Source of the DNA: a virus
Direction: 5' to 3' (one strand)
DNA: 22,376 nt
UHGV virus genome: UHGV-0378502
Under the pieces are notes generated by a model, which was given only the letters and a program-made list of their open reading frames with translations, was not told where the DNA came from and ran no database searches. Of the stretch, positions 2,796 to 10,681 are shown piece after piece (positions within the stretch are counted from its first letter, which is position 1; each line of letters begins with the position of its first letter). The translations under genes were made by a program, and so were the position numbers.

Positions 2796-2866
2796 CTGAC
2801 AATAGCCATATCGAATCGCTTCCGGCAACTCGTGAGTAAAAAGATTCGGTATCAGAAGAGGTGAGT

Positions 2867-3937
2867 ATGGCTAACGCCTGGCTCAGATTATGGCATGACA
2901 TGCCAAATGACCCTAAGTGGCGAACAATTGCCAGGGTGTCAGGGCAGCCAATTGCAACAGTGATGGCAGTGTATATCCACCTCCTGGTGAGCGCGTCACG
3001 AAATGTCACGCGAGGTCACATTGATGTCACGACAGAAGATTTGGCAAGTGCGCTCGACGTGACAGAAGAGGTAATTGATTCAATTTTGCAGACGATGCAG
3101 GGGCGGGTACTTGATGGTGATTTAATCACTGGATGGGAAAAACGCCAGGTGCTGAAAGAGGACAACGGCAATATTTTGCAAACCGCAAAATCTCCGGCAG
3201 AGCGCAAGAGGGCGCAGCGAGAGAGGGAAAGAAAGCGGGAACAAAATGGCGATTGTCACGGCGAGTCACGAAATGTCACGCACATGTCACGACGAGTCAC
3301 GACAGATAAAGATACAGATAAAGATACAGATCAAGAAGATCAAAACACTATGGTCCATGGCGTAAAAAACGCCACGAACCAGGCAGGGGATGTTCAGACC
3401 GTCACTCCTGGCCAGCCCGCAGGCACGACACCGGAAGCCGATTCAGCGTATGCGCTGAAAGCCGATTCGGGCGCTGTGCAGCAGGTGATGACCGCAAGGC
3501 AGGAGCAATCACACCAACTTCAGCAGCCTGAAGCCGATTCCGCCATTCAGCGGGAAGCCGATCGGGTAGTCCCGGAAAACACCGGGCAGCCTGTGGGACG
3601 AGTGGATTATCCTGATGTGTTCGAACAGGTCTGGCGGGAATACCCGTTGCGTGCCGGGGCAAACCCGAAGAAATCCGCTTTCAGTGCCTGGAAAGCCAGA
3701 TTACGCGAGGGGGTGCCACCAGAGGCCATGCTGGATGGCGTGAGGCGTTACGCAAGATACCTTGCGGCTACCGGGAAAACGGGAACGGAATTTGTTCAGC
3801 GAGCGACGACGTTTTTTGGACCGGACCGGAATTTTGAAAACCCCTGGCTGCTCCCGGTAAGCGGCACGAACAACCAGCGTTGTGTGAATCATATTTCTGA
3901 ACCGGATAACGAAATTCCGCCGGGCTTCAGGGGGTAA
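2867..3937 (+). CDS. Phage replication initiator (replisome-organizer / O-like protein) containing internal iterons
   Basis: ATG 2867 with GAGG upstream. The N-terminus (MANAWLRLWHDMPNDPKWRTIAR...) resembles the phage replisome-organizer N-terminal domain; an acidic low-complexity linker (DKDTDKDTDQEDQ) separates it from a C-terminal domain; position is immediately downstream of the cro/cII-like genes. Family assignment from memory. Confidence 0.75.
   Translation: MANAWLRLWHDMPNDPKWRTIARVSGQPIATVMAVYIHLLVSASRNVTRGHIDVTTEDLASALDVTEEVIDSILQTMQGRVLDGDLITGWEKRQVLKEDNGNILQTAKSPAERKRAQRERERKREQNGDCHGESRNVTHMSRRVTTDKDTDKDTDQEDQNTMVHGVKNATNQAGDVQTVTPGQPAGTTPEADSAYALKADSGAVQQVMTARQEQSHQLQQPEADSAIQREADRVVPENTGQPVGRVDYPDVFEQVWREYPLRAGANPKKSAFSAWKARLREGVPPEAMLDGVRRYARYLAATGKTGTEFVQRATTFFGPDRNFENPWLLPVSGTNNQRCVNHISEPDNEIPPGFRG
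2995..3031 (+). repeat. Iteron cluster 1 inside the initiator gene (4 x GTCACG at about 10-bp phasing)
   Basis: GTCACG/GTCACA at 2995, 3005, 3015 and 3026 (spacing 10, 10, 11), with an inverted CGTGAC copy near 3058. Confidence 0.7.
3255..3345 (+). repeat. Iteron cluster 2 (5 x GTCACG at helical phasing) plus adjacent AT-rich tandem repeat; candidate origin of replication
   Basis: GTCACG at 3255, 3265, 3275, 3286 and 3296 (spacing 10, 10, 11, 10), followed by gataaagataca x2 and an A-rich stretch (3302-3345). The arrangement is analogous to ori-lambda lying inside gene O. Confidence 0.65.
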
Positions 3938-3977
3938 GTGTTAATTTCTGGTCATGAGGTAATTTTCAGGAGGGCTT

Positions 3978-4400
3978 GTGGCAAAAGTTTTTACACAAGA
4001 AGAGCGGGAAAAAATTAAAGGACAGGTTCTTGAACTCGTACGCCAGAGTGGGCGCGAGACGTTACGACAACTGGAAGCTAAAACTGGGGCAACAAGATAT
4101 CTGATGAGCGTTCTGGCCAGAGAGCTGGTTGCCAGTGGCGATGTATACAATTCTGGCTACGGGTTATTCCCGTCTGAACAGGCTCGTAAAGACTGGCAAA
4201 ATGCCCGCAAAAAATTATCGAGGGCAAAGCTGAAGAAACCGGTTGTGGTTGATCCGGACCTTATCTGGTCGTTACCTGACGGAGAAATACGTCGCTACGA
4301 CAGTCGCCTAAACATAATCTGTCGCGAGTGCCGGAAGAGTGAAGCTATGCAGCGTGTACTGGCTTTCTATCAGGGTAATTTTCAGGAGGCGGTACTGTGA
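3978..4400 (+). CDS. Hypothetical protein (140 aa)
   Basis: GTG start at 3978 preceded by AGGAGGG (3967-3973); ORF follows the initiator gene; no recognisable family. Confidence 0.55.
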   Translation: MAKVFTQEEREKIKGQVLELVRQSGRETLRQLEAKTGATRYLMSVLARELVASGDVYNSGYGLFPSEQARKDWQNARKKLSRAKLKKPVVVDPDLIWSLPDGEIRRYDSRLNIICRECRKSEAMQRVLAFYQGNFQEAVL

Positions 4401-4457
4401 GTGAAATTAGCTATCAGGCTTCAATTACCGCTGGCATTCGCATCAAAGGAGAGGAGC

Positions 4458-4814
4458 ATGGAAATAAAACCAGAGGATGAGTTAAGCAATATCGTTTTAT
4501 TTCCGGTAAAAGAGGATGACCCTCGTAATCAGGTTAATTTTCTTTATGAGCCATCGGAAAGACCATATTGTCATCACGCCTCTGTCCGGGTTGACGAAAA
4601 AGAGCGTCAGGTCCGCTGTAAAATCTGCGGTGCAGTTGTGGAGCCATTTGACTGGATGCTCTCTGTGGCGAAAAGAGAAACCAGACTGGCAGATGATGTA
4701 AGGCTCTTGCGTCAGGAGGAGCGGGAAAGGCGAAAAAATATAGAAAAGCTAATTCAGATTGAGCGTAACGCGAAAGCGCGGATACGCAGGGCGACAAAAT
4801 CCAGAACTGAATAA
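4458..4814 (+). CDS. Hypothetical protein with Cys/His cluster (possible zinc ribbon), 118 aa
   Basis: ATG 4458 preceded by AAGGAGAGGAG; contains CHH ... CKIC spacing suggestive of a zinc-binding motif; basic coiled C-terminus. The track ORF begins at GTG 4401. Confidence 0.55.
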   Translation: MEIKPEDELSNIVLFPVKEDDPRNQVNFLYEPSERPYCHHASVRVDEKERQVRCKICGAVVEPFDWMLSVAKRETRLADDVRLLRQEERERRKNIEKLIQIERNAKARIRRATKSRTE

Positions 4815-5922: not shown

Positions 5923-6180
5923 ATACAGCGAACGCCATTGGTTTAGTTGGATATTTACTGTGCCGGACAAAAACGGTTTGCGGGGAAATCTTAGTTAAGT
6001 AGAATGACTGCGGGTGCTTGAGGCTATCTGTCTCAGGCATGAACACCAAAAGGCAGATAGAGAAAAGCCCCAGTTAACATTACGCGTCCTGCAAGACGCT
6101 TAACATTAATCTGAGGCCATATCTATGCGACACATAGAGATTAGCCTCTTACGGACCGAAAGGTCAAGGAGAAGCAGGCT

Positions 6181-6336
6181 ATGAAGCAGCAAAAGGCGAT
6201 GTTAATCGCCCTGATCGTCATCTGTTTAACCGTCATAGTGACGGCACTGGTAACGAGGAAAGACCTCTGCGAGGTACGAATCCGAACCGGCCAGACGGAG
6301 GTCGCTGTCTTCACAGCTTACGAACCTGAGGAGTAA
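6181..6336 (+). CDS. hokD: Hok-family type I toxin (HokD/RelF-like, 51 aa)
   Basis: Product MKQQKAMLIALIVICLTVIVTALVTRKDLCEVRIRTGQTEVAVFTAYEPEE matches my recollection of HokD/RelF; long structured leader upstream and a GC hairpin plus T-run downstream, as expected for hok mRNAs. Confidence 0.85.
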   Translation: MKQQKAMLIALIVICLTVIVTALVTRKDLCEVRIRTGQTEVAVFTAYEPEE

Positions 6337-10431: not shown

Positions 10432-10507
10432 GGCCCTTTAGCTCAGTGGTGAGAGCGAGCGACTCATAATCGCCAGGTCGCTGGTTCAAATCCAGCAAGG
10501 GCCACCA
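10432..10507 (+). tRNA. tRNA with CAT anticodon (Ile2/lysidine-type or Met)
   Basis: Manual cloverleaf: acceptor GGCCCTT/AAGGGCC, D-arm GCTC-AGTGGTGA-GAGC, anticodon stem AGCGA/TCGCC with loop CTCATAA, T-arm GCTGG-TTCAAAT-CCAGC, discriminator A, encoded CCA. Resembles the ileZ-type tRNA I recall from Stx-converting phages. Confidence 0.8.
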
Positions 10508-10604: not shown

Positions 10605-10681
10605 GCGTTGTTAGCTCAGCCGGACAGAGCAATTGCCTTCTAAGCAATCGGTCACTGGTTCGAATCCAGTACAACGCGCCA
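10605..10681 (+). tRNA. tRNA-Arg (anticodon TCT, reads AGA/AGG)
   Basis: Manual cloverleaf with perfect acceptor stem GCGTTGT/ACAACGC, D-arm GCTC ... GAGC, anticodon stem ATTGC/GCAAT with loop CTTCTAA, T-arm ACTGG-TTCGAAT-CCAGT, discriminator G, encoded CCA. Confidence 0.85.

Follow-up and report, generated by a model that had tools for sequence, protein, structure and literature searches.

We analysed a 22,376-nucleotide (nt) stretch of the viral genome UHGV-0378502 (hereafter the window, meaning the whole stretch), in which an early region of lambdoid (pro)phage type is followed by late genes. The subject of the analysis is a gene at 2867-3937 that encodes a protein of 356 amino acids (aa) and contains two arrays of the short repeat GTCACG. 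An original prediction, made from the letters of the window, had named this gene a replication initiator and the repeats within it a candidate replication origin. The assignment of the gene proved sound: the protein matched phrog_3729 ('replication initiation protein') over its full length (E 6e-256), its RefSeq name is 'phage replisome organizer', and its ATG is preceded by a GAGGTG Shine-Dalgarno sequence. The features of this gene are listed here; offsets in the text are gene offsets of the initiator open reading frame (ORF) 2867-3937.

2867-3937, + strand: initiator ('replisome organizer') gene, 356 aa, matching phrog_3729
2995-3031, + strand: array 1, four iterons starting at 2995, 3005, 3015 (GTCACA) and 3026, spacing 10/10/11 bp
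3053-3064, - strand: single inverted iteron between the arrays, TGTCACGTCGAG on the - strand
3255-3301, + strand: array 2, five iterons starting at 3255, 3265, 3275, 3286 and 3296, spacing 10/10/11/10 bp
3302-3349, + strand: AT-rich, purine-biased tract, the proposed unwinding element, ACAGATAAAGAT x2.9, then GATCAAGAAGATCAAAACAC
3351-3381, no strand assigned: imperfect 31-bp palindrome directly 3' of the AT tract, TGGTCCATGGCGT-AAAAA-ACGCCACGAACCA (weak evidence)
3869-3934, + strand: DnaT-like C-terminal tail, NNQRCVNHISEPDNEIPPGFRG, ending in …ISEPDNEIPPGFRG

Exact copies of GTCACG lie on the + strand at 2995, 3005, 3026, 3255, 3265, 3275, 3286 and 3296, and on the - strand at 3058 (3058-3063). 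Nine copies thus fall within 307 bp, compared with nine in the other 22 kb of the window; approximately 0.14 would be expected by chance in 307 bp (Poisson P ~6e-14). No other repeat cluster or comparable origin candidate was found in the 22-kb window. The five copies predicted for array 2 were all exact and 10-11 bp apart. In array 1, where four GTCACG copies had been reported, three were exact and the spacing held, but the copy at 3015-3020 is GTCACA, a position at which most relatives have GTCACG. The inverted copy at 3058 was absent from the original list of repeats. It extends to 12 nt (CTCGACGTGACA at 3053-3064), with 11 of the 12 complementary to the TGTCACGNCGAG iterons of array 2, and it forms an inverted pair with iteron 4 of array 1.

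Tandem Repeats Finder reported a period-10 array at 3255-3304, followed by ACAGATAAAGAT in 2.9 copies at 3302-3336, confirming the 12-nt tandem repeat described earlier after array 2. The A-rich tract that had also been noted there was equally evident: on the + strand, positions 3302-3349 are 71% A+T and 71% purine. Of the 45-bp stretches in the gene, the one starting at 3306 is the least stable, at -50.4 kcal/mol (gene mean -66.2, standard deviation 4.2), and the AT tract is within the least stable 0.6% of all such stretches in the window.

The two arrays occupy different parts of the coding sequence. Array 2 (offsets 388-434) encodes aa 130-145, CHGESRNVTHMSRRVT, which form the end of a basic helix and the start of a disordered linker, and the AT tract encodes DKDTDKDTDQEDQ (aa 147-159), inside the segment predicted to be disordered. 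This agrees with the linker position first proposed. Array 1 (offsets 128-164), which is read in three frames, lies instead within the sequence coding for the DNA-binding domain, at aa 43-55 (ASRNVTRGHIDVT).

DNA-level conservation of the repeats

A search with the N-terminal domain (N-domain) of the initiator identified 953 relatives in hosts ranging from E. coli to Pseudomonas, Bordetella, Achromobacter, Azotobacter and Chromobacterium, with identities of 60-70%. The DNA of 39 loci was taken from species-representative genomes. These loci were fetched using two peptide patterns, one of which, [AG]S[RQ]NVTRGH, favours the GTCAC repeat class at the amino-acid level and may therefore have biased the search; this pattern is degenerate at the DNA level, and the second pattern, WHDMPND, recovered other repeat classes. 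For codon comparison we used 20 GTCAC-class loci from approximately 17 genera of beta- and gamma-proteobacteria, with a mean nucleotide identity of 69% and a GC content at third codon positions (GC3) of 0.27-0.83.

Both arrays and the (GATAAA)n tract were present at the same gene positions in the 20 GTCAC-class relatives. The separation of the repeats into two arrays had been thought unusual; in this initiator family, however, the two-array layout is the norm. GTCAC was found at offsets 128, 138, 148 and 159 in more than 20 loci, from hosts as different as Entomomonas (locus GC 34%) and Pseudothauera (69%), and the inverted GTGAC at offset 192 was kept in approximately three quarters of the GTCAC-class loci. 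Array 2 was present in all loci of this class, with 3-5 copies at approximately offsets 386-430 and a spacing of 10 or 11 bp. Its end always read GTCAC(G/A/T)nnAGATAA, most often GTCACGnnAGATAAAGATAAA, and abutted the AT tract. A (GATAAA/GATACA)n repeat followed array 2 in each of these relatives, with its GAT and AAA codons kept even at 69% GC.

Within the repeat cores the codons TCA, GTC, ACG, GGT and CAC were fixed, while neighbouring invariant Leu, Val, Arg, Glu, Asp and Ala residues used all of their synonyms. Codon entropy at degenerate codons with an invariant amino acid was 0.16 bits in the cores (n=7) and 1.53 bits outside them (n=30; Mann-Whitney p = 2.5e-5). In the spacers, third positions (codons 45, 49, 52 and 56) were as free as elsewhere, with conservation of 0.3-0.5. 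In protein alignments, ASRNVTRGHxDVT and CHxESRxVT show little or no variation, and CHxESRxVT lies in an otherwise hypervariable linker. Since synonymous sites are frozen in the cores and vary freely elsewhere, we regard SRNVTRGHxDVT and CHxESRxVT as read-outs of the DNA repeats. This comparison showed that the GTCACG repeats are strongly selected as DNA, independently of what they encode in the protein.

The recurrence of SRNVT and SRRVT in the protein, and the invariance of ASRNVTRGH in alignments, could also be expected if the repeats answered a protein-level need for a repeated SRxVT peptide, or were an mRNA feature, and not a DNA site. We give this explanation almost no weight. Synonymous positions are frozen in the 6-bp cores only and are free between them. 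The cores occupy all three frames and encode different residues (CH, SR, VT and GH), so no single peptide repeat explains them, and array 2 encodes a linker that is disordered and otherwise hypervariable. Direct repeats form no RNA hairpin, and an Rfam scan of 2800-3500 gave no match. The codon data argue that a protein or mRNA explanation is largely refuted.

Variation among close alleles was examined in the best 80 of at least 550 viral relatives, all 98-100% identical, a comparison that is informative for close-allele variation and not for new iteron classes. These comprised 48 distinct alleles, in which 106 of 1071 sites vary but only one of 60 core positions does (Fisher p = 0.013). No variable site was present between offsets 398 and 464, and one allele (L099) had one extra 12-bp unit in the AT tract. 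Repeat number changes by 10-, 11- and 21-bp steps. Compared with most homologues, array 2 of the window has an HMSRRVT insertion (3281-3301) of 21 bp or 7 aa, corresponding to two of its five repeats, and array 1 of the E. albertii locus (L004) has a 21-bp, two-repeat insertion encoding TCHGVSL at offsets 155-175. It appears that upkeep of the reading frame restricts slippage to repeat pairs (10 + 11 bp).

We also considered whether the palindrome at 3351-3381 might be a third element of the origin that is conserved. It calls to mind the palindrome that ori-lambda has on the right of its AT tract, and Shigella phage 75/02 Stx retains the palindrome of the window (L001 2913-2943), with a compensatory swap of the innermost pair from T-A to A-T. 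However, over 21 loci the best inverted repeat at this place was usually no better than in random stretches of the same locus (the fraction of same-locus stretches scoring at least as high was 0.02-1.0), and the candidate was rejected as a conserved element. The palindrome of the window may, on this weak evidence, belong to the origin.

Initiator domains and repeat classes

A Pfam scan of the 356-aa protein detected no family at E <= 0.01, including the lambda O family (Phage_rep_O) and RepA_N (PF06970). The match to TIGR01714 ('phage replisome organizer, N-terminal region') was weak, at 15.3 bits against a curated cutoff of 49.8 (E 0.017), but the alignment nonetheless ran end to end, placing aa 5-125 on profile positions 1-119. 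Near-identical genes are present in the isolated phages vB_EcoS-640R1, Evi and Tritos, where the labels differ ('replication protein O', 'primosomal protein I' and 'replisome organiser').

An AlphaFold2 model of the initiator, built on a 77-sequence alignment, predicted that a winged-helix N-domain occupies aa 1-95 and is followed by a basic helix at aa 110-131, and that aa 134-203 form a disordered linker and aa 249-317 a helical C-terminal domain (C-domain). The N-domain was modelled confidently, with a predicted local distance difference test (pLDDT) score mostly above 90 for aa 11-95, and pLDDT was below 50 for aa 134-203. The elements of the N-domain model are helices at residues 2-11, 16-25 and 29-45, a loop, a strand at residue 51, helices at 56-63 and 67-77, and a beta-hairpin wing; array 1 covers the codons for the last part of helix 29-45, for the loop after it and for the short strand. 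A Foldseek search against the PDB gave no significant match, and the top hits were all winged-helix regulators. The N-domain fold is a winged helix of the type found in the N-terminal domain (NTD) of DnaD and in RepA_N proteins.

Further along the linker, (G/A)AAGCCGAT occurs four times at 3431-3562 (starts 3434, 3458, 3530 and 3554), in one frame and coding EAD or KAD. These units belong to a PEADSA-like acidic repeat of the disordered linker, which phage 75/02 also has. They are more suggestive of a repeat at the peptide level, perhaps a short acidic motif for docking, than of a DNA site.

The last ~22 residues of the initiator are nearly identical to the C-terminus of the host primosomal protein DnaT, with matches at positions 156-179 of the NF002770 profile and in the PDB DnaT chains 6aep, 2ru8 and 9zbt. 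The likeness to DnaT is confined to this tail, since the score against NF002770, the DnaT equivalog profile, was 19.3 bits with a cutoff of 201. The only other match in the PDB sequence search was to a designed repeat protein, which we dismissed as spurious. Close relatives carry the Pfam DnaT ssDNA-binding domain PF17948, and the PPGFRG ending of the window protein is shared by relatives with otherwise different C-domains (P0032, P0043, P0051 and P0105). The tail has the look of a portable peptide for docking to a replication partner of the host, and is a candidate link to the host helicase-loading machinery. A paper on the preprimosome (2026) gave no function to the DnaT tail and left the recruitment of DnaB/DnaC by DnaT unresolved (PMC13377028).

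Distant relatives carry other repeats at the same two positions, each followed by a tract of GATAA/GATAC type. A GTAACG class was found in Pantoea and Enterobacter (L024, L026) and in Marinobacter and Sphingomonas (L034, L036), a CGAACGC class in L031, L033, L035 and L039, and GTCACG in a different arrangement in L028 and L029. A low-GC subgroup (L030, L032 and L037) has the AT tract and approximately two (C/T)GAAC repeats at the array-2 position but no clear array 1. Shigella phage 75/02 Stx (L001) has only the C-terminal half in common with the window protein, at 64% identity from aa 158. Its N-domain is unrelated, and it has its own GGGGCTTC cluster at 11-bp spacing (L001 2577-2620) and a second cluster (L001 2826-2905) with inverted GAAGCCCC/GAGCCCC directly before a purine-rich (CAGGAA)n tract. 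The two-cluster layout is therefore found in a second initiator family as well. Together, these comparisons suggest that the repeats travel and change with the N-terminal module of the initiator, which is the pattern expected of cognate iterons.

In two further loci, from a Serratia metagenome-assembled genome (L038) and from Pantoea (L040), the N-domain is joined to another C-terminal part, YVYYVATTDGDVVRVGISRNPWAR… (offsets ~330-560), which we take to resemble a nuclease of GIY-YIG / T5orf172 type. Neither the repeat arrays nor the AT tract were found in L038 and L040, and the DNA-binding module appears to have been reused there outside an origin context.

We looked in the protein for residues that could set the specificity for a repeat class. 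Outside the loop encoded by array 1, proteins of other classes are 62-78% identical to the window protein and no more diverged from it than proteins of the same class, and no alignment column there separates the classes cleanly; specificity residues outside the loop were rejected on this basis. The basic arm (aa 95-130) correlates with class only partly, L028 being an exception. The segment encoded by array 1 (aa 44-55) differs most between classes: it is SRNVTRGHxDVT in the GTCACG class, SKNETRGNATVT in the GTAACG class and SNATERGRTQNV in the CGAACGC class. This leaves three possibilities, namely that specificity is set by the loop or the basic arm, that it is set by a few scattered substitutions, or that the differing base is not read.

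One consequence of the first possibility would be a self-referential origin, in which array 1 encodes a loop that helps to read the iterons, and a change of the repeat, after its spread by slippage or gene conversion, alters the site and its reader in one step; the recognition helix, by comparison, can be almost the same in two classes (L034 and L013). We regard this idea as rather unlikely. The amino-acid changes in the loop are forced by the changes in the DNA, and the basic segment at aa 95-130 also differs between classes. If the idea were true, initiator and origin could switch specificity together, giving rise to new incompatibility groups.

Gene context and carriers

The genes flanking the initiator in the window are as follows.

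1414-2052, - strand: S24/helix-turn-helix (HTH) cI-like repressor
2096-2386, + strand: cro-like ORF
2298-2795, + strand: YdaT-like ORF
3978-4400: DUF977 / Ren-like gene, the next gene 3' of the initiator
4401-4814: zinc-ribbon-like protein gene, 3' of the DUF977 / Ren-like gene

Elsewhere in the window, a hok/sok-type toxin-antitoxin locus is present at 6012-6336, where the Rfam sok match (6012-6183, 106.7 bits) and a 51-aa Hok-like ORF (6181-6336) overlap, and two tRNA genes are present in the late-regulatory region of the prophage (10432-10504 and 10605-10678; Rfam 72.5 and 70.1 bits).

The gene that follows the initiator differs between relatives. It is lambda-P-like in L005 (E 3e-10) and L007 (E 2e-18), encodes a DnaB-type helicase in L015 and L122, and is DnaC/IstB-like in L021 and L026; in phage 75/02, which has the same C-domain as the window protein, a DnaC-like gene follows. 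The gene context in the relatives is that of a replication module of the O-P type. The immunity genes upstream also differ between carriers. Given these differing flanks, no gene but the initiator is consistently linked to the arrays. The same arrays are found in L122, a 50.9-kb circular element of P. aeruginosa that was deposited as a 'plasmid' and has no other typed replicon.

These data bear on whether some factor besides the initiator could bind the repeats, from the host or from the phage itself (such as the repressor, the YdaT-like protein or the DUF977 protein). The recognition helix of the initiator does not follow repeat class, as might be expected if another protein read the repeats. 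However, the arrays persist while the flanks change, both in the immunity region and downstream, where a P-like, DnaB, DnaC-like or DUF977 gene may be found. In addition, hosts that are closely related can have different repeat classes, with GTCACG in E. coli and GTAACG in both Enterobacter and Pantoea, contrary to what a conserved host factor would produce, and the initiator gene alone is physically inseparable from the arrays. We therefore consider binding by another factor very unlikely.

The origin region matched 2209 of 5426 complete E. coli genomes (approximately 40%), in up to four places per genome, under the labels 'hypothetical protein', 'phage replisome organizer' and 'DnaT-like ssDNA-binding domain-containing protein'. 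Where co-resident copies have identical iterons, cross-activation or titration between prophages is conceivable. Homologues of the N-domain occur in many proteobacterial (pro)phages, including those of Pseudomonas, Bordetella and Aeromonas; the domain is carried in 24 phage records, none of them of a model phage.

A putative origin within the initiator gene

Taking together the clustering of the repeats, their conservation at the DNA level, the fusion of array 2 to the AT tract, the class-specific repeats, the gene context, the circular carrier and the precedents described below, we think it probable that the repeats and the AT tract constitute the origin from which a lambdoid (pro)phage replicates, and that this origin lies within the gene for the phage's own initiator. 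The locus is an uncharacterised case of the 'origin inside initiator gene' arrangement. In this, the comparative sequence evidence bore out the original prediction of a plan like that of ori-lambda, with initiator-binding iterons and an AT-rich unwinding element in the initiator gene.

In lambda, the origin, comprising iterons and an AT tract, is in the middle of gene O, and iteron number varies from 4 in lambda to 6 in Shiga toxin (Stx) phages (PMC7466680). The putative origin of the window resembles ori-lambda in its position inside the initiator gene, in its tandem iterons followed directly by an AT-rich tract, and in the placement of this tract and the downstream iterons in the part coding for the linker between the N-terminal DNA-binding and C-terminal recruitment domains. 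Iteron number is likewise variable among relatives (3-5 in array 2 of the window family), and the module likewise comes after cro and a cII-like gene in the early transcript that runs rightward, with a lambda-P-like neighbour in some relatives. However, the window protein has no lambda O family match, and the window phage has no P gene, the next gene being DUF977. The window family also has a second, upstream array in the region coding for the DNA-binding domain, together with an inverted copy, and the window iterons have a 6-7-bp core and a 10-11-bp period, in contrast to the 19-bp iteron units of lambda.

A second precedent is oriL of phage SPP1, which is located within gene 38 and consists of direct repeats together with an AT-rich unwinding element bound by the product of that gene (PMC6316719). 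The window gene appears to share with SPP1 and related lactococcal phage origins this pairing of direct repeats with an AT-rich element within the initiator's own gene, and its protein has in common with G38P the NCBI name 'phage replisome organizer' and a winged helix of the DnaD-NTD type, and matches TIGR01714 weakly. However, this TIGR01714 match is far below cutoff and the hosts of the window family are Proteobacteria. Furthermore, no second distant origin like oriR was seen in the window, and no dedicated loader or helicase genes follow the initiator.

RepA_N plasmid origins are commonly located inside the rep coding sequence. The window protein shares with RepA_N proteins a winged-helix N-domain like that of DnaD, but has no match to the Pfam RepA_N family (PF06970), and the repeats of the window are short, purely direct and one turn apart. 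In the RepA_N members of the plasmids pSK41 and pTZ2162 and the RepA of the Vibrio satellite PLE, the iterons are bound by the DnaD-NTD-like N-domain and the C-domain is variable and host-specific (PMC7145576). The window differs from classical iteron plasmids (RepA/pi/TrfA), as it has neither 17-22-bp iterons nor, within 5 kb, DnaA boxes with one mismatch or fewer. With E. coli DnaT only the tail of the window protein matches, and the remainder is a putative origin-binding protein. As judged from its sequence, the window locus is unlike lambda, SPP1 and RepA_N alike in its very short, one-turn repeats, in the second array within the sequence coding for the DNA-binding domain, and in the inverted copy between the arrays.

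These features suggest how initiation might proceed. Early rightward transcription through the cro-like, ydaT-like and initiator genes would both make the initiator and traverse the origin, as in lambda. The winged-helix N-domain would bind each iteron, and with one site per turn the monomers would be stacked head-to-tail on one face of the DNA; winged helices of the PhoB/OmpR type bind 10-11-bp direct repeats head-to-tail. The basic helix (aa 110-131) may provide further contacts or bring about oligomerisation. The complex on array 2 would stress and melt the adjacent (GATAAA)n tract, and array 1 and the inverted copy, approximately 225-230 bp upstream of array 2, may help by looping. Finally, the C-terminal domain or tail would bring in host DnaB-DnaC, possibly via the restart primosome or the primosome partners of DnaT. 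Use of host DnaB-DnaC is probable given that no loader gene adjoins the initiator and that the tail is DnaT-like; where relatives have other C-domains, the adjoining gene is lambda-P-like, DnaC-like or DnaB-like.

The arrays, and especially array 1 with the inverted copy, might instead be regulatory binding sites for the initiator, serving as a roadblock, in copy control or in 'handcuffing' as in iteron plasmids, with initiation elsewhere. Array 1 and the AT tract are 225 bp apart, a separation that is not constant between relatives, and copy 4 is paired with the inverted copy in an inverted arrangement that resembles the operators of plasmid Rep proteins. The low-GC subgroup keeps the AT tract and two repeats at the array-2 position without a clear array 1, and with up to four copies of the module in one E. 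coli genome cross-talk is plausible. However, array 2 is joined without a gap to a conserved AT tract in every relative, which is the signature of an origin and not of an operator, and the 22-kb window holds no comparable candidate from which replication could otherwise start. Regulatory and origin roles can also coexist. We thus consider an exclusively regulatory role improbable. For array 1 itself, the variable distance to array 2 and the subgroup without a clear array 1 make it most likely that its function is auxiliary or regulatory, as an enhancer, an autoregulatory roadblock or a copy-control site.

Several observations weigh against the assignment of an origin. No gene for a helicase loader or helicase adjoining the initiator (3938-4814) was found in the window; phage Tritos likewise has a DUF977 gene after the initiator and no loader. 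Array 1 is 225 bp from array 2, this distance is variable, and some relatives are without array 1. The core of 6-7 bp and the period of 10-11 bp are far shorter than in classical iterons of 17-22 bp, and the mode of binding proposed above is accordingly a guess. No DnaA box with one mismatch or fewer was found within 5 kb. The recognition helices of L034 (GTAACG) and L013 (GTCACG) are nearly identical, so the protein may not read the differing base, and slippage or gene conversion may be all that keeps the repeats alike. Finally, a literature search found no paper on this initiator family and no description of its origin; a match in the literature on Pseudomonas Pf-5 concerned an unrelated island and was discarded.

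The depth of conservation of the arrays, the DNA constraints that pose as protein motifs, and the prevalence of the module in E. coli make this family notable. For annotation, SRNVTRGH and CHxESRxVT are conserved owing to the DNA and should not be taken as catalytic or structural residues. An origin located in this gene would permit a direct test of how these prophages replicate without a helicase loader of their own. It would also permit tests of whether co-resident copies interfere with one another, and of whether the iteron classes act as incompatibility groups.

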